Of a stretch of DNA of 64,000 nt, positions 10,010 to 45,317 are shown piece after piece (the stretch's first letter is position 1; every line of letters starts with the position of its first letter). Source of the DNA: a virus (Duplodnaviria > Heunggongvirae > Uroviricota > Caudoviricetes); IMG/VR virus record IMGVR_UViG_2778261638_000005, positions 6,684 to 70,683 of that record. The stretch is one strand, 5' to 3'. The notes under the pieces were generated by a model that was not told the origin of the DNA, did not search any database, and worked only from the letters and a program-made list of their open reading frames with translations. Position numbers and translations under genes: made by a program.

Positions 10010-10302
10010 TCCTGTTCACTGGCCTCTTTGGCCATCTTCAAATACTGTTCAGGGCAATGCGCCATAACGCGCTGAAACAGTTCCAGCGCCAGATTGCGTT
10101 GCCCCTCATTAAATGCCATTGCCATAGCGTCCATCGGTGAGATAGCGGAAAACACACGGCCTTTCTCCAGCACCGACCAGACAACGCGACGCCCCTGTTC
10201 ACTGCTCATGACAAAGCGAATGTCATCAATTTCACGCTGCGCCATGTCACGTTGCTTACGGGCGTTTTCTTCTTTCAGTTGATCGTCTTCGTAATCTGTC
10301 AT
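10006..10302 (-). CDS. hypothetical head-module protein
   Basis: 98 aa ORF overlapping portal stop and scaffold start. Confidence 0.4.
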   Translation of the reverse strand: MTDYEDDQLKEENARKQRDMAQREIDDIRFVMSSEQGRRVVWSVLEKGRVFSAISPMDAMAMAFNEGQRNLALELFQRVMAHCPEQYLKMAKEASEQE

Positions 10303-11978
10303 TGTGATTGCCCACCCTGACCACTAACTGCATTCGCCATAGCTGACAAAACACTCGGATCCGAAGTTTTAGCTTCGCTTAGCGTCTTGGCACCCTGTGC
10401 CGCCGCCATCCCCATCGCCATCATTTGTTGCTGCTGTTGTTGCTGTGCCCGTTGCTGGCGAGTCTGCTCAACCTGTTCCTGCGGAACAATGACGGTTGGA
10501 GACACTCCGGACATATCAGCGAATGCATCGATCGCCTGATCAACGTTGAGTTTGTCGAGAGCTTCTGGTTTCGCTTGCGCAAGTTGACCAATGAAGTTGA
10601 CCGTAGACGCCAGACTGGACAGGCCGATAGACTTCTGCGCCTGAGCCATGACGGAAATGTATTCGACCTTCAGGGGCATACCTTCCATCGCGTCAGGCGG
10701 TGGCGGCAGCATTTTTTTACGCACCATCATCGAGAAAGCGCGGTCAATGAGAGGATTAAGACATTCGTCGTTCAGACGCTCCAGAACCGGCCCCAACATC
10801 AGAAGTTTTTCTTCTTTCATTTCGATCACCGCTTCAACAGGCATCGAGCGGGTATTGATGTTCTGCAACATCATGAACAGATCGACAAAGTAGGCGCTGT
10901 TAATGATTTGGCGAGTGTCCTGAATGTCTGCTACCAGATCTGCTGTACTGGGGTTAACCAGATAAGCAGGCCTGAAACCATCCTGACCAGTAATCTGATC
11001 GATATACGTGATGTCGCCAGGAAGAAGGGAGGCGCGCTGATTCTTGAGGGAAGTCGGAGCAACCATCGGCGGATTGGTGGCTTTATCAATCAACTGCGAC
11101 TTGCGCTTCTGGAGAAGCTGCAATGCCTTAACAGGTCCAAGCGCCAGCATACCCGGGCATGATGATCCATAAACATCTTCGCCGTTAACTTCCCAGCGCG
11201 GAGCCATAATTGGAAACTCATCGAATCCGGACTCACGCAACAACTTGTCGTTATCGCCACCAACCTCGTAATAAACCGATTTGAATGGCTTGTTCTTGCT
11301 ATCCAGCTTCGATGTATCGCGGTCAATGTTCGGGTAAACCGAATGCATCACTTCAATCCACTTCTCGTAGGTGCCGCTTTCCCACATGCTTTTTACGGAT
11401 TCGCTGACGTTATTTAGCCCGAACTCCTGAACAAGCTGACGAACAGTCATAGAGAACTTGCGAAAACAGGTGTCCACACTGCCACGAGGTGAGTTAGCCA
11501 GGTAGTAACTGCCTATCGGGAATGGCATTGTGCGAATGATGTCCTCGTCATCCTCCAGCACTGCCATTGCACCAGTGCTGTATGTGCCGAGGCTTCCGTA
11601 TAACTGCGGCAGAGACTGATAGAGATTCGACTTATTGAACATATCGTTCATGCGGTTCTGCACCGCCTCAAGCCACAACTTAACAGGGCCATAATCCATC
11701 ATTTCAGGATCTGGCGTAGCCAGGCGAAACCACGGACGCGCGGGGCTTGTGATGCCTGACATCATGCCGCTGGCGAGAGTGCGCGCCGCCATAGTCCCGG
11801 TCGAATCAATAATGCGTGTATTGCGTCGATCGTTACGGTTGACCTCAGAAGTCAGAAAGCGGGAACCACGCGGGTTGATGTAATCACTCAACTCGCGCCA
11901 GTGCGGCTCGAACGACTGACGCTCGCTTTCAAGTTGTGCGAACTGTTTGTTCAATCGCTCTTTAGTTGTTTCCGCCAT
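10299..11978 (-). CDS. portal (head-to-tail connector) protein, podovirus/T7-like
   Basis: 559 aa; Gln/Ala/Met-rich C-terminal tail (QQRAQQQQQQQMMAMGMAAAQG...) like the T7 gp8 C-terminus as recalled; sits between terminase and scaffold. Confidence 0.8.
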   Translation of the reverse strand: MAETTKERLNKQFAQLESERQSFEPHWRELSDYINPRGSRFLTSEVNRNDRRNTRIIDSTGTMAARTLASGMMSGITSPARPWFRLATPDPEMMDYGPVKLWLEAVQNRMNDMFNKSNLYQSLPQLYGSLGTYSTGAMAVLEDDEDIIRTMPFPIGSYYLANSPRGSVDTCFRKFSMTVRQLVQEFGLNNVSESVKSMWESGTYEKWIEVMHSVYPNIDRDTSKLDSKNKPFKSVYYEVGGDNDKLLRESGFDEFPIMAPRWEVNGEDVYGSSCPGMLALGPVKALQLLQKRKSQLIDKATNPPMVAPTSLKNQRASLLPGDITYIDQITGQDGFRPAYLVNPSTADLVADIQDTRQIINSAYFVDLFMMLQNINTRSMPVEAVIEMKEEKLLMLGPVLERLNDECLNPLIDRAFSMMVRKKMLPPPPDAMEGMPLKVEYISVMAQAQKSIGLSSLASTVNFIGQLAQAKPEALDKLNVDQAIDAFADMSGVSPTVIVPQEQVEQTRQQRAQQQQQQQMMAMGMAAAQGAKTLSEAKTSDPSVLSAMANAVSGQGGQSQ

Positions 11979-11992
11979 TTCAATGACTCCGG

Positions 11993-12199
11993 TTACTGAC
12001 CAAGTAGCGTTTTACCGCTGGTATTAGCGGTTGATGTGTCGCCCTGAGAACCGGTAAGCAGCGTAGAACTACGACCAGCAGCAGCGCGACGGCGACGAGT
12101 TTCTTCGTCGCGGGCATCAACAACGGCGGCATCCTGCTCCTGTGGTGCTGCCTGAACTTCTGGTGTTGCAGGCACTGATGGTGAGCTACCCATGCACAT
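11993..12199 (-). CDS. small Ser/Thr/Ala-rich protein (putative)
   Basis: 68 aa ORF with GGAG RBS 8 nt upstream, just upstream of portal. Confidence 0.25.
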   Translation of the reverse strand: MCMGSSPSVPATPEVQAAPQEQDAAVVDARDEETRRRRAAAGRSSTLLTGSQGDTSTANTSGKTLLGQ

Positions 12200-12626
12200 A
12201 TCAATGACTCCGTACGCAATTAAATTATTACCAATTTAACCACATATGATTTATTTATCGTAGTCGGTTGACATTTAACGCACGAATTATTACCTTTCAG
12301 GTAACCAAAAAGTTCATTCCGGTTACTAACCTGACTGGCTTGTCGTTAAATTGAACAGGTGGAGTGAGCTTTTATTTTGAGCAGTACGGCGTATGGCACA
12401 TGCGCCGATAGCGGCCTGGATACGTTTAAGGGGCACCCTCCCTTGCTCGGGCAAACGAACCAGGTAGCCGGAATGTGCAAGTCGAGCGGTTTTATTCCGC
12501 GCACGGGGATTCACCATCCCGGCGATTCGGTGTGACGCCTCGGAAGAGACGAGGGTACAACGATGAGAGCATTTATGGAGCCGCGACAAAGTGTGGTGCC
12601 TTAACAGGCTAAGTGCTCTCAGCGTT

Positions 12627-12703
12627 GTGGCATTAGCTCAGTCGGACAGAGCAACCGCCTTCTAAGCGGTTGGTCGCAGGTTCGAATCCTGCATGCCACG
12701 CCA
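12627..12703 (+). tRNA. tRNA-Arg (anticodon TCT)
   Basis: Cloverleaf read from sequence: acceptor GTGGCAT/ATGCCAC, D-arm GCTC-AGTCGGACA-GAGC, anticodon stem ACCGC/GCGGT with loop CTTCTAA, T-arm GCAGG-TTCGAAT-CCTGC, discriminator G, CCA. Confidence 0.85.
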
Positions 12704-12864
12704 GAATCACGCCTAAGGACCGTGATGCCAGAAGTTCCAGTGCTTGGCGGTGATGGTTTCCCTTGAAGGACTATCACCGCACTTTTTACAGCAGGACGCC
12801 ATTGCGATGACTTCATGCTGTAAACCCGTACAGCCACGGAAGGAAGAACTCATTGCTTCCAGTT

Positions 12865-12889
12865 CGCCCGGTTCGCCGGGCATTTTTTT
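12865..12889 (+). terminator. rho-independent terminator-like hairpin
   Basis: GCCCGG-ttcg-CCGGGC stem followed by ATTTTTTT, downstream of the tRNA. Confidence 0.5.
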
Positions 12890-12900
12890 AAGGTGAGATT

Positions 12901-13257
12901 ATGAACGACCAGCAAATCGAAAAAGAAATCGTTGAGAAAGGCAAAACGGCACCGCGAGTTACGCCTCAATATATCGAAAGCATCATTCTTGAAGAGCATT
13001 TCTTTACTGCTTATGACGGCATTCGTGCCGCCAATATGGGCGTTGGCGATTCATGGACAGCGCATAACTCTACAGACCTCCTGACTTTCTGCGTACTGGT
13101 GCTGAAGAATGGCTTCACCGTCACCGGAGAGAGTGCCTGTGCAAGCCAGGAAAACTTTGATGCAGAAATTGGTCGGAAGATTGCCCGGCAGAATGCTGTA
13201 AACAAAATCTGGATGCTCGAAGGTTACTTGCTGAAGCAGAAGCTAAGCGAGCAATAA
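12901..13257 (+). CDS. hypothetical protein (opposite-strand moron-like gene)
   Basis: 118 aa ORF with AAGGTGAG RBS; only plus-strand gene in an otherwise minus-strand morphogenesis block. Confidence 0.5.
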   Translation: MNDQQIEKEIVEKGKTAPRVTPQYIESIILEEHFFTAYDGIRAANMGVGDSWTAHNSTDLLTFCVLVLKNGFTVTGESACASQENFDAEIGRKIARQNAVNKIWMLEGYLLKQKLSEQ

Positions 13258-13347
13258 CACCGTGACATGTCACAAACAGCCAGCCGATGAGCTGGCTTTG
13301 TTTTATCCTCACCAGAGGATATCAGCAGCATTATCCCCTCCAACGGA

Positions 13348-14823
13348 TTAAGCATAGGGATCGTAATCTGTGATGGCCTTGCCTTGCTGGTTCTGCTGCC
13401 CGGGAATTCGCAGACGCTTCGACACAGGGAACGCAAACGTCAGCAGTAGCGCATCGCCTTTACCCGGCGAACGCCCAAGCCGCTCCTTGATATCTTCCTT
13501 CGGTTCGATAACGATTTTACCGTCCACTCGAACTTTGTACTCAGCCGCCGACAGGTCGTCCGCTGTTTCCTGGTCATCAAGCATGCCACCCAGCCTCAGC
13601 CATGTCTTGCATGAGTTGAACATCTCCCCACGCTTGTTGAGCATCTGCGGGTCAGTAGACGCGCCACCGAACGGAACAAGTTGCCATGTACGACCCCAGC
13701 CGTCACCGATTGACTTCAGACCAGTTCCGTAACCGAAGTCGATGAACACTGCGTCAGCCTGGTACTGGTCTTCAAAGTCAGCGATACGCTTCGCCATAAT
13801 CAGATCGTCAGTGGTCTTGTTGCCAGTCCACAGCACCTTACTGTGCAGCCCCTGCCGCAGGTATATCACAGCGTCATCAACGCCGGAGTATGCCGGGTCA
13901 ACGCCGATTATCACCGGAGCATGTGCAACCTGCGCAGCGGTTACCACCCGTTTCATTGCCTCGTCAGTAAGGCCAGTAGGGATAAACTGCAATTCAGATG
14001 CATCCGGGAATATGCCGCGCACACGGATTTTAACGAAGTCGCTGTCTTCCCCGTAGTCATCAACCCATTTCTGCAACTGCTGTTTGTTAGTGCCTTCCAC
14101 CGTCCGGCTGTCAATCTGCGCACACTTCCAGCGGTGTTTGTACTTGCGGAAACATTCACGGAAACGCCCGGTGTTACGCGTCGGGTTTCCGAACGCCACC
14201 CAGATAATCTCAGTGTCTTCGTCCGTTAGCGCACCCTCGGCAACTTCCCACACCAGATCCGCAATGTTCGACGCTTCATCGAATACCACGATGATGCGTT
14301 TGCGCTCGTTGTGTAGTCCGGCGAATGCCTCAGTGTTGTGCTCAGACCAGGGGATTGCGTCAGCTCGCCACCGCTTGTCGTGCCCAGGGTCATTGCTGTA
14401 CATCGCGGTAGCGGTACAGGTAAACCAGTCTTTCGTGATAGCAAGGTTCGACCACTTGATAATTTCCGGCCAAGTCTTCGTTCGTAGCTGGTTGTCGGTG
14501 TTGGCGGTCACCACGACCTTACAATCCTCGCAAGTGGACATGCCCCAGTTGATCAGCATTGAGATGAATGCGGATTTACCAATACCGTGACCCGAAGCAC
14601 GTGCCAGCATAAGCGGCTGATAGCGCGTCTCTGGATTCTGCAGGTGATCACGTATCTCTCGGAACGCATCAGCCTGCCACTGACGTGGACCGGTGGCATG
14701 TGCTAATTCAGTCCCCTCTTCCCCCCACGGGAACGCATAGAGGGCATAGCCAAGCGGATCGTGAGTGAACCCTGCAATATCCTCGATCAACTGCTCTTCA
14801 GGAGATAACGCTGTATCTGTCAC
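13348..14823 (-). CDS. terminase large subunit
   Basis: 491 aa; Walker A-like SGHGIGKS and Walker B-like IIVVFDEAS; nuclease-type C-terminal half. Confidence 0.85.
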   Translation of the reverse strand: MTDTALSPEEQLIEDIAGFTHDPLGYALYAFPWGEEGTELAHATGPRQWQADAFREIRDHLQNPETRYQPLMLARASGHGIGKSAFISMLINWGMSTCEDCKVVVTANTDNQLRTKTWPEIIKWSNLAITKDWFTCTATAMYSNDPGHDKRWRADAIPWSEHNTEAFAGLHNERKRIIVVFDEASNIADLVWEVAEGALTDEDTEIIWVAFGNPTRNTGRFRECFRKYKHRWKCAQIDSRTVEGTNKQQLQKWVDDYGEDSDFVKIRVRGIFPDASELQFIPTGLTDEAMKRVVTAAQVAHAPVIIGVDPAYSGVDDAVIYLRQGLHSKVLWTGNKTTDDLIMAKRIADFEDQYQADAVFIDFGYGTGLKSIGDGWGRTWQLVPFGGASTDPQMLNKRGEMFNSCKTWLRLGGMLDDQETADDLSAAEYKVRVDGKIVIEPKEDIKERLGRSPGKGDALLLTFAFPVSKRLRIPGQQNQQGKAITDYDPYA

Positions 14824-15494
14824 TGATTACCATCCTGACGTTCTTTGAGTCGCTTCCTGGCTGCTGCTATGCGATCAGCAATTGTCACATTCACATTAAC
14901 ATCCAGACGTTCTTTGAACGCGTTGACATCAACATGCTTACCAATCAGCTCAAGGTTCTTCACCTTGTCAGGCCATTTAATTTTTTTGAGGATTGTCTCT
15001 ATCGAATCCTCGTTCATGTTCATGATGGTCGATGACAGATCAAAGCCACTAAGCGTAGTGCGCCAAATTTTCGGCCACTCACGGATTGGTTTAAGGCTCC
15101 CATCGTCGTTGAGGATGTCGATCACGTCCATCTGGTCGATCTCCACCAGGCGCATGAGAACGTAATCAGCACTGACGCGCATTCGTTTGTTGCGCTCCTC
15201 CATCAACTCGGCAATCCGTTTTTGAATGCGTTCATCGCGCATCATGACACTGGCTTTAACTGCCGCTGTATTTGGGGAGAATCCTGCGTTAATCGCTGCC
15301 TGAGTCTGGTTTTCAGGCGTTTTGATGTATGACTGGCAATAAGCCTCCTGCATTGCTGTTAGTGGCTTAAATTGCGTTGATTTGCGTTTATAGGTTTTAG
15401 GTTCAGCAGGCATCATAACCACCGTGGTAATAGTTACCGTTGTGGTAATAGTATCATGCAAAATAAAGCCGCCATAGTTGGCGGCAGTATTCAA
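14820..15494 (-). CDS. terminase small subunit
   Basis: TPENQTQAAINAGFS HTH motif typical of terminase small subunits; probable true start at MMPAEP (15416); coupled to large subunit. Confidence 0.7.
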   Translation of the reverse strand: MNTAANYGGFILHDTITTTVTITTVVMMPAEPKTYKRKSTQFKPLTAMQEAYCQSYIKTPENQTQAAINAGFSPNTAAVKASVMMRDERIQKRIAELMEERNKRMRVSADYVLMRLVEIDQMDVIDILNDDGSLKPIREWPKIWRTTLSGFDLSSTIMNMNEDSIETILKKIKWPDKVKNLELIGKHVDVNAFKERLDVNVNVTIADRIAAARKRLKERQDGNQ

Positions 15495-44568: not shown

Positions 44569-44815
44569 GATGTTCTGTCTCGTCTGCCAGCCGCGCGGCA
44601 CGATTTGCGGCACGGATAGCGGAAAATACCTGCATCGTCTGTTCCTGACCGTGTAACAACCATTCAGCCGTGTTGCGGGCCTGTTGCTCCGTCTGTAATT
44701 CACGGCGCAGCGTCTGGTTATCGTGGCGGGTGCTGTCCAGCCTGTGCCACAACACCCCGGACAGAACGGCGGCAAACACGGCTGCCAGCAGTAAACTTTT
44801 ACTGGCGAAGGTCAT
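44429..44815 (-). CDS. i-spanin (inner-membrane spanin subunit)
   Basis: 128 aa, N-terminal transmembrane helix and coiled-coil periplasmic domain; overlaps o-spanin and endolysin. Confidence 0.6.
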   Translation of the reverse strand: MTFASKSLLLAAVFAAVLSGVLWHRLDSTRHDNQTLRRELQTEQQARNTAEWLLHGQEQTMQVFSAIRAANRAARLADETEHHDAKQKITTAITGDNCSTRPVPAVAADRLRELEKRTRAIGGDPARN

Positions 44816-45317
44816 CCGCCCCCCTGATATTCCAGATAGCCATTTCCACTTCGCGACGGTTCATCAGTCCTTTCCATTTATGGCCTGCGGCAAACACCCA
44901 GCGGGCCATCTGGTCACGCGCTCCGGCGTAATCACCGGCATTGAGTTTTTTCAGCAGCGTTGATTTACTGAATGCGGTAACACCGGTGTTGAAAATAAAC
45001 GTTGCCAGCGCCGTTTTCTGATATGGCGTCAGCGGCACCCTGACAAGACGATCGATTGCCGCATAAACCGGTTTTAAATCACTGTCGAGAAGAGCCATAC
45101 ACTCCGCATGGCTGTAACGGCGCATTTCGATATCCGGCCCGGTATGTCCCACACAGACCGTAAGCACACCGGCAATATCGCGGTAAGGCATATAAGCGAT
45201 ATTTTCCAGATGGATCAGAGACTGACGGGTCATTTCCTGATAACCACCCACACCGCCACCGGCAATCGTTGCCGCCAGCAGTGCGGCTTTCAGTTTTTTT
45301 GGTATCCCCGCCATCAT
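44799..45317 (-). CDS. SAR endolysin, T4-lysozyme-like (Mu lys position)
   Basis: 172 aa; N-terminal signal-anchor-release type hydrophobic segment (LKAALLAATIAGGGVGG) followed by lysozyme-like domain; downstream of C. Confidence 0.75.
   Translation of the reverse strand: MMAGIPKKLKAALLAATIAGGGVGGYQEMTRQSLIHLENIAYMPYRDIAGVLTVCVGHTGPDIEMRRYSHAECMALLDSDLKPVYAAIDRLVRVPLTPYQKTALATFIFNTGVTAFSKSTLLKKLNAGDYAGARDQMARWVFAAGHKWKGLMNRREVEMAIWNIRGADDLRQ

Follow-up and report, generated by a model that had tools for sequence, protein, structure and literature searches.

We examined a 64,000-nucleotide (nt) stretch of phage DNA, positions 6,684 to 70,683 of IMG/VR record IMGVR_UViG_2778261638_000005 (the window, to which all unlabeled coordinates refer), at a locus between its terminase and portal genes where a structured RNA lies ahead of a transfer RNA (tRNA) gene. 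The gene order there is that of the epsilon15/phiV10-like podoviruses (genus Uetakevirus). Between terminase and portal, the strand that does not encode the morphogenesis genes carries a small accessory operon. From 5' to 3', it comprises a candidate early promoter with an operator over the −10 element, the RNA, tRNA-Arg(UCU), two terminators, an Acb4-family gene, and a last terminator (Table 1). The first-pass annotation of this DNA had noticed a plus-strand block of tRNA and open reading frame (ORF) inside minus-strand morphogenesis genes, and this layout held, with portal, gp3 homologue, TerL, and TerS all on the minus strand. The 1.1-kb block is 96-97% identical to phiV10 and its relatives. 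Since the RNA part is 100% identical to one E. coli chromosome, the window is an E. coli prophage.

Neither the tRNA nor the Acb4-family gene is a new kind of element. The RNA family is a previously undescribed phage early-leader RNA, for which we found no description in Rfam, RefSeq annotation, or the searchable literature.

Table 1. Features of the accessory operon and the genes on either side of it
Feature	Position	Strand	Remarks
Portal gene	10299-11978	minus	
epsilon15 gp3 homologue	11993-12199	minus	68 aa
Divergent control region	12200-12267		AT-rich; gp3/portal operon (minus) on one side, accessory operon (plus) on the other
Promoter-like site	12268-12296	plus	−35 TTGACA (12268-12273), 17-nt spacer, −10 TACCTT (12291-12296); our scan
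Operator-like palindrome	12289-12305		ATTACCTTTCAGGTAAC; overlaps −10
Upstream module H copy, degenerate	12308-12379	plus	AAAGUUCAUUCC...GGAGUGAGCUUUUAUUUUG; alignment A3
Core of the structured RNA	12386-12554	plus	~170 nt; five helices plus PK1 and PK2
Helix P1	12387-91 / 12403-07	plus	
Pseudoknot PK1	12396-12401 / 12473-78	plus	GCACAU/AUGUGC; never varies
Junction helix	12412-14 / 12468-70	plus	three pairs, CGG/CCG; one compensatory case
Helix P2	12415-19 / 12460-64	plus	
19-mer	12463-12481	plus	GGTAGCCGGAATGTGCAAG; invariant in ten-copy alignment
Helix P3	12486-89 / 12497-12500	plus	from single-sequence fold
Helix P4	12506-09 / 12517-20	plus	
Pseudoknot PK2	12512-15 / 12529-32	plus	CACC/GGUG
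Helix P5	12538-42 / 12550-54	plus	
Closing hairpin P6 (module H)	12556-12629	plus	UACAACGAUGAGAGCAUU ... AGUGCUCUCAGCGUUGUG; last three bases are the first three of the tRNA
tRNA-Arg, anticodon UCU (reads AGA)	12627-12703	plus	ARAGORN; Rfam RF00005; CCA end encoded in the DNA
Terminator-like hairpin T1	12747-12789 (hairpin 12747-12780)	plus	13-bp stem, then ACTTTTT
Terminator-like hairpin T2	12866-12889 (hairpin 12866-12881)	plus	GCCCGG-TTCG-CCGGGC, then ATTTTTTT
Ribosome-binding site of the ORF	12890-12897	plus	AAGGTGAG; 4 nt before ATG
118-aa ORF, PF13876 (Phage_gp49_66)	12901-13257	plus	Pfam
Terminator-like hairpin T3	13278-13305 (hairpin 13278-13297)	plus	closes the plus-strand block; faces the terL end
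TerL gene	13348-14823	minus	
TerS gene	14820-15494	minus	

A conserved structured RNA ahead of the tRNA

The DNA upstream of the tRNA had been described as GC-rich and rich in stem-loops. This is true of 12386-12626 but not of 12200-12350, which is AT-rich and holds promoter-like and operator-like sequences. The region 12200-12626 splits into an AT-rich part (12200-12385) and a GC-rich structured RNA (12386-12629), with GC contents of 31% at 12200-12267 and 31-37% at 12200-12350, compared to 58-59% at 12386-12626. An alignment of ten copies of the RNA consists of invariant blocks between hairpins of variable length, with compensatory changes, and about 50 bases of the core are invariant.

We then aligned 38 representatives of less than 90% mutual identity with MAFFT (alignment A2). 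Four helices and two pseudoknots were paired in 96.6% of the alignment cells, compared to 27-49% when the partners were slid, 13 pairs changed on both sides, and none of 500 shuffles equaled the support for this fold. When 66 sequences were fitted to the covariance model (alignment A7, which is biased towards the model by construction) and the three-pair junction helix was added, 97.0% of the cells were paired and 15 pairs changed on both sides, and again no shuffle out of 500 did as well. The window copy scores 144 bits against the covariance model, and the window sequence by itself folds into P1 to P6. As PK1 is invariant, it is proposed from its complementary hexamers alone, while PK2 switches to AACC/GGUU in eight sequences, which gives it limited covariation support. 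G-U pairs are frequent on the plus strand in A7, and many are possible only there, which establishes that the transcribed strand is that of the tRNA. Taken together, and judged by covariation, the core is a conserved multi-helix RNA made from the plus strand. Rfam 15 gave no match at an E value of 10 or below in 12200-12626, and the tRNA was the only gathering-level match in the window.

Such conservation might also come from a small protein gene or from a DNA site for protein binding, recombination, or packaging. Phage records do call ORFs across the core (mEp460 gp37 and mEp390 gp36), and at least one stop-free frame crosses it in 33 of the 38 copies. However, core lengths in these 38 copies fall into all modulo-3 classes (18/10/10), the variable columns show no codon periodicity (32/29/32 by codon position), and ORFs in 12200-12626 have no Pfam match, which together rule out a coding gene. 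The 15 base pairs with compensatory double changes also speak against this explanation, and a double-stranded DNA site would not yield G-U pairs on the plus strand only. A gene or DNA site is therefore largely refuted, and we hold it to be very improbable. The first-pass view of 12220-12626 as non-coding agrees with these data, since no ORF matches Pfam, no three-base periodicity is seen, and lengths vary by non-multiples of three. A miniature inverted-repeat transposable element or other small mobile repeat was likewise ruled out, with a median of one copy per genome, a maximum of four, and one copy in the window.

Two further observations concern the RNA itself. The hypothetical-protein calls that overlap it (mEp460 gp37, L161 1443-1811, minus strand; mEp390 gp36, L011 2511-2753) are probably spurious, and the RNA corrects such calls in reference phage genomes. 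The apex of P2 (12440-12452) carries a conserved pyrimidine motif, CUCCCUUG, elsewhere UUCCUUG, that resembles an anti-Shine-Dalgarno sequence. The T1 loop (12757-12770) holds a similar pyrimidine motif, UUUCCCUUGAAGG.

Genomic contexts of the core and its closing hairpin

A BLAST search with 12200-12640 showed that 12386-12630 matches unrelated phages at ~80%, always in unannotated DNA. The matches include P1, P7, D6, SJ46, and RCS47; cdtI, mEp460, and mEp390; phages for Shiga toxin (Stx) 2c and some for Stx2a; the Klebsiella siphovirus SopranoGao; and a Stenotrophomonas phage. We found the core in 88 phage records and the 19-mer in more than 120 IMG/VR contigs. It is present in 1840 of 5426 complete E. 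coli genomes, at one to four copies each, on chromosomes and P1-like plasmids, and is never annotated. The exact 19-mer occurs in 24 species genomes, 22 of them Enterobacterales and two metagenome bins, one with a full copy and the other with only a chance-level match. By this distribution, the core represents a large family that is so far restricted to phages and prophages of Enterobacterales.

The surroundings of the core are diverse. Among 151 occurrences, we counted 37 different upstream and 47 different downstream flanks, and from the sequences compared, the core travels as a cassette between unrelated phages (epsilon15-like, P1, lambdoid, and Klebsiella siphovirus). About 43 copies occupy the Uetakevirus slot. 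In 18 P1-type copies, a tRNA-Ile2 gene ends 13 nt before the core and the ban helicase gene follows; in phage P1, the core lies 2.3 kb into the ban operon, directly ahead of ban and its ribosome-binding site. tRNA-Arg stands immediately 3', abutting the closing hairpin, in 28 contexts.

Many copies follow a repressor gene. A cI-type gene (helix-turn-helix plus peptidase S24) is the immediate same-strand neighbor upstream in 67 of 140 copies, and a perfect or near-perfect −35 hexamer is found 30-130 nt upstream in most contexts. The order in phage cdtI is the cI stop codon, a terminator, a near-consensus promoter (11/12) with operator-like repeats, ~45 nt, the core, P6, a strong terminator, and the first gene. 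A hairpin of about −20 kcal/mol followed by a T-run separates the RNA from the first gene in cdtI-type phages. The core of cdtI is thus in the PL leader, the place of nutL/N in lambda and of putL in HK022, and an N-like ORF was not found in any class of downstream sequence. As far as these contexts tell, the core sits near the start of repressor-controlled early transcripts.

Some close relatives are without the core. In phage epsilon15, a deletion has removed most of the core together with P6 and the tRNA (L007 2806-2995 compared to window 12380-12905, alignment A6) but has left T2 and the acb4 homologue; it runs between near-identical TTCCCTTGATGCT repeats, one in the P2 loop and one in the T1 loop. 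Phage LLS has no core, although its downstream terminator and genes are common to cdtI and mEp460, and it carries module H behind a different leader. The epsilon15 deletion and the absence from LLS imply that the core is dispensable.

We also noted several arrangements in related leaders. One IMG/VR prophage contig (L030 4959-4795 and 4154-3988, minus strand) has two diverged tandem cores ~800 nt apart, downstream of a repressor gene. In the PL leader of LLS, the place of the core (L160 32260-32150, minus strand) is taken by a hairpin, ACCACCGCGCCUGAUGUGGUU, and then a terminator-like hairpin. The same ACCACCGCGCCUGAUGUGGUU hairpin precedes the core in other prophages (L030 ~4250-4160, minus strand), so that such leaders are assemblies of several RNA modules that can replace one another. 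A 40-nt block, GCATCRCCGGRCGACGGGCTCATAACCCAATCCAYCCGGGCG, is near-invariant between the strong terminator and the first early-left gene of cdtI, mEp460, and LLS (L006 ~2915-2960; L160 31900-31840, minus strand; alignment A4 columns 655-698; also the hairpin insert of L039 and L068). A related sequence, GGGCCCAUAACCCAAUCCA, recurs elsewhere, and GCUCAUAAC is loosely boxA-like and could be a Nus-factor site.

The closing hairpin P6 has a history of its own. It is paired in 250 of 276 alignment cells, compared to 218.7 +/- 4 in shuffles, with compensatory changes. It has the features that define what we call module H: a long stem, basal CAAC/GUUG, and arms of the GAGAGCA/UGCUCUC type around a variable insert. 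Hairpins of this type, unaccompanied by the core, were found in at least 63 distinct contexts, phage P1 has the core without P6, and LLS has the hairpin without the core. Lambda carries one directly after tR' in its late leader (44787-44862; L240 388-463). P6 shares the lambda late-leader consensus CAAC-(A)GGUAAGAGCAUU ... AGUGCUCUUUCC-GUUGUG, and some copies are exactly of the lambda subtype. However, the lambda hairpin stands alone in a late operon, whereas P6 in the window belongs to an early operon, where it closes the core and is joined to a tRNA. As a module, the closing hairpin is separate from the core and older, and shared copies of module H may be the recombination joints that moved the core between phages. 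The form CAAC-AGGUAAGAGCAUU ... AGUGCUCUUUCC-GUUGUG is a widespread stand-alone leader module of enterobacterial phages (L160 32150-32070, minus strand; L163; L176; L195).

The upstream copy of module H is degenerate in the window and intact in Klebsiella, Enterobacter, and epsilon15 relatives (AAAGCGCAC...GGAGUGCGCUUCCAGGUGUG). The epsilon15 record labels its upstream copy "RNaseIII, mRNA processing," which is an annotation only. By its title, the paper of Daniels et al. (1988) deals with RNase III processing sites in the lambda late leader, which may fall in the module H hairpin. By analogy, we infer that P6 is a candidate RNase III site. A boxA reading of the 3' arm of P6 (UGCUCUUU...GUUGUGG, like rrn boxA/boxC) was rejected because the bases of this arm are paired and their covariation leads away from the boxA consensus. 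Across the contexts compared, the core is flanked on at least one side by an apparent RNA-processing signal, either a tRNA or a hairpin of the lambda late-leader type.

Promoter, tRNA, terminators, and cargo gene

The control region at 12200-12267 is near-invariant among epsilon15-like phages, with long unchanged runs (TTAAATTATTACCAATTTAACCACATATG, alignment A3). The arrangement TTGACA-17-TACCTT is kept in E. coli, Salmonella, Klebsiella, and Enterobacter relatives. A stricter promoter scan of the window did not list this site, and so it remains a candidate. The palindrome over its −10 element has the form ATTACC-N5-GGTAAT, of which the window holds eight sites compared to 1.7 expected, a number reached in none of 100 shuffles, and the epsilon15 record annotates the homologous palindrome as a repressor binding site. 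This points to a candidate early promoter that would be shut off in the lysogen. The first-pass suggestion of a structured RNA or a promoter/processing region upstream of the tRNA was therefore apt on both sides, with a covarying RNA, a candidate promoter and operator, and a hairpin of RNase III type (by annotation only).

The tRNA was the only one that ARAGORN found in the 64-kb window, as tRNA-Arg(TCT), with no tmRNA or additional tRNA. Covariance scoring had been set beforehand as the test that could overturn the call of a complete tRNA-Arg(UCU), and the gene scored 73.3 bits against RF00005, compared to the gathering score of 29. Related phage records annotate it as tRNA-Arg. In the phiV10 RefSeq record, the tRNA is unannotated and overlapped by a hypothetical-protein call, p04 (L001 3434-3685, minus strand), which is probably spurious. 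AGA codons occur at 5.1 per 1000 over all long ORFs of the window and are concentrated in a few other genes; none is present in the portal, major capsid, terL, terS, and acb4 genes. Thus, the tRNA does not serve the adjacent late genes, and AGA demand of those genes was ruled out as its purpose.

Where a single terminator hairpin had been noticed after the tRNA, there are in fact two, T1 (free energy −18.7 kcal/mol in our scan) and T2, and a third, T3, follows the ORF. The phiV10 record annotates the T3 homologue as a rho-independent terminator. The end of T2 directly abuts the ribosome-binding site of the ORF, and a promoter scan found no promoter-like site between T1/T2 and the ORF.

The 118-aa ORF, first noticed for its strong ribosome-binding site, is real, and its product belongs to a Pfam family. 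It matches PF13876 with an E value of 2.7e-34 and 118 bits (cut-off, 27) over profile positions 1-82 of 82. The direct match to the Acb4 crystal structure (PDB 9e4w) is weak (E = 0.0076). PF13876 has been equated with the Acb4 family of anti-CBASS nucleotide sponges (bioRxiv 10.1101/2024.12.30.630793). By family membership, the ORF is an Acb4-family gene, predicted to encode an anti-CBASS cyclic-nucleotide sponge. Phages phiV10, TL-2011b, SPN9TCW, Enterobacter phage Tyrion, and epsilon15, as well as a Klebsiella prophage, all have this plus-strand block between terL and gp3/portal. The first ORF in the slot, or downstream of the RNA, is elsewhere a Tad2-like gene (PF11195), an HNH endonuclease gene, a DUF551 gene, or a gene for an unknown protein. 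With the slot conserved and the cargo variable, we regard the block as an accessory, largely anti-defense, slot. It had been proposed to be an acquired moron. A candidate promoter, terminator T3, a site between essential genes, and cargo that differs among relatives all agree with an accessory unit carrying anti-defense-family cargo, but not with a recent acquisition, since the slot is conserved across Uetakevirus and only the cargo ORF varies.

The position of the core ahead of these terminators could mean that it is a cis-regulatory sensor, that is, a riboswitch or a protein- or tRNA-binding leader that, in answer to a ligand or to the state of the host, controls the stop at T1/T2, translation, or decay. 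A 5' leader position, a complex conserved fold with invariant junction nucleotides, and the phage P1 core directly ahead of the ban ribosome-binding site are all in keeping with this. However, the downstream genes are unrelated (47 flank classes, 26 protein clusters), and P6 and the tRNA stand between the fold and the terminators. Furthermore, the terminators lie 120-240 nt past the fold and do not overlap it, so that no alternative-pairing expression platform is visible. We consider a sensor unlikely.

Possible actions of the core

We tentatively favor, by analogy with HK022, a core that works as a put-like leader RNA letting RNA polymerase pass downstream terminators, a reading that we hold open to doubt. 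The emerging RNA would fold and act in cis on its own RNA polymerase, as put does in HK022, and the modified polymerase would then ignore downstream intrinsic terminators. These would be T1 and T2 in the window phage and, in N-less lambdoid prophages, the strong terminator located after PL and ahead of the first early-left gene. The tRNA, the anti-defense cargo, and the early-left genes would thereby be expressed early with no need for an antiterminator protein of the phage, and the closing hairpin and tRNA would allow RNase III and RNase P to sever the leader from the message.

Several observations lead us to this put-like reading. The core occupies the put/nut position in N-less lambdoid prophages, with terminators before the genes. 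With T2 touching the ribosome-binding site of acb4 and no promoter intervening, read-through is needed for the gene to be expressed from upstream. The occurrence of an invariant core in a single host order points to an interaction with some conserved host machine. A put-like RNA mechanism has also been suggested, with no element named, by the authors who described the N-less lambdoid phage LLS (PMC12315714), although we set that phage aside as an example since it has no core. HK022 put acts in cis on RNA polymerase, at the zinc-binding domain of beta', and suppresses pausing and termination. Like the core in cdtI-type phages, put lies in the leader after a repressor-controlled early promoter of N-less lambdoid phages and is followed by terminators; putL is between PL and the first gene, and the core takes the equivalent place in the lambdoid copies, though not in the epsilon15-like copy of the window. 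Both are confined to enterobacterial phages, and neither has a dedicated phage protein nearby. They differ in build, since put is ~70 nt with two stem-loops and an RNA triplex, while the core is ~170 nt with five helices and pseudoknots and a further 75-nt hairpin. A phage usually has one core, compared to two put sites in HK022, and the core is the commoner element (88 versus 21 phage records) and also occurs outside lambdoid phages.

A number of results weigh against a put-like action. The resemblance to putL and putR is not significant, as local alignments as good were reached by 17 of 300 shuffles for putL and 153 of 300 for putR, and the covariance model of the new family finds nothing in HK022. 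We therefore claim no homology to put; the collinear resemblance ACGGCG...CAUGCGUCG-NN-AGCG...CGG-AAUG-UGC was set aside as a candidate. The two also differ in size, ~70 nt in two stem-loops for put and ~170-245 nt for the new RNA. LLS lacks the core though it shares its terminator and genes with cdtI and mEp460, and epsilon15 retains T2 and the acb4 homologue without core or tRNA, so the core is dispensable in both settings. In phage P1, the core is 2.3 kb inside the ban operon, and our scan found no terminator in the 700 nt after it. Terminators downstream of the core are no more numerous than in control stretches, by a finder too permissive to be informative. Finally, processive antitermination in the window would drive polymerase antisense into terL.

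Much of the same evidence can be taken differently. The core may be excised from the early leader and act in trans as a stable non-coding RNA. As an RNA cargo, it would bind or mimic something conserved in the host (RNA polymerase, Rho, RNase E, the ribosome, or a tRNA-handling enzyme, for instance) or would counteract a host defense. The flanking processing signals (tRNA-Arg in 28 contexts, tRNA-Ile2 in 18, and module H on one or both sides, a hairpin type that the epsilon15 record labels as an RNase III site) would suit such an RNA, and so would its mobility as a cassette among unrelated phages, its presence or absence between close relatives, and neighbors that include Acb4-family and Tad2-like sponge genes. 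With ~170 nt, pseudoknots, and ~50 invariant bases, the core exceeds the needs of known cis antiterminator RNAs, and one prophage has it twice in tandem. However, the core has no terminator of its own and same-strand genes always follow. Lambdoid phages carry it only in the PL leader, and it was never seen in the late leader, where module H also occurs. An invariant 19-mer in a third of E. coli genomes is unexpected for a decoy of variable defense, and no partner is known. Action in trans is thus a real possibility, but we regard it as rather doubtful.

Between the put-like antiterminator and the excised trans-acting RNA, we think it fairly probable that the core represents a new class of protein-independent regulatory RNA that a large share of enterobacterial temperate phages use, acting in one way or the other. 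If the put-like reading is true, the core would be a second, commoner, and structurally unrelated RNA that reprograms RNA polymerase, only the second known type of phage RNA to do so alone, and it would explain early-left expression in N-less lambdoid prophages. Were it to act in trans, the core would instead count as a new effector RNA of the early phage stage, working as a decoy, sponge, or ribozyme on a conserved host machine during the opening minutes of infection, beside anti-CBASS and anti-Thoeris sponges. Either way, the RNA controls or accompanies anti-defense genes (Acb4, Tad2-like) and rare-codon tRNAs. Its carriers make up about a third of complete E. coli genomes and include Shiga-toxin phages (Stx2c, some Stx2a) and P1-type plasmid prophages. 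The small size of the RNA makes it accessible to direct structural and genetic work.

Two other known systems offer a comparison. In Stx phages such as 933W, the rare-codon tRNA genes ileZ-argN-argO lie between PR'/tR' and stx in an antiterminated late leader. The Stx leader and the window thus both have a rare-codon tRNA between an antitermination-type signal (a candidate in the window) and terminators, upstream of cargo. The signal of Stx phages is the Q protein with a DNA site, whereas the candidate signal in the window is an RNA in an early operon. GOLLD and ROOL are large structured RNAs of phages and prophages that often adjoin tRNA genes, and like them the core is a complex structured phage RNA of unknown function near tRNA genes. 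In contrast to them, it has no Rfam match, is much smaller, and is found in Enterobacterales hosts in a leader position behind early promoters.

Two further observations concern the wider window. The other seven copies of the operator-like palindrome are at 15415, 15433, 18880, 18942, 58186, 58898, and 58960. They form three clusters, with one pair at the start of terS, another pair at ~18.9 kb, and the remaining three at ~58-59 kb. Palindromes 40 kb apart in one window could reflect the prophage layout or a second related element. In addition, 22340-43087 is a long run of large minus-strand ORFs, which suggests more phage-like or other mobile DNA beyond the epsilon15-like genes.

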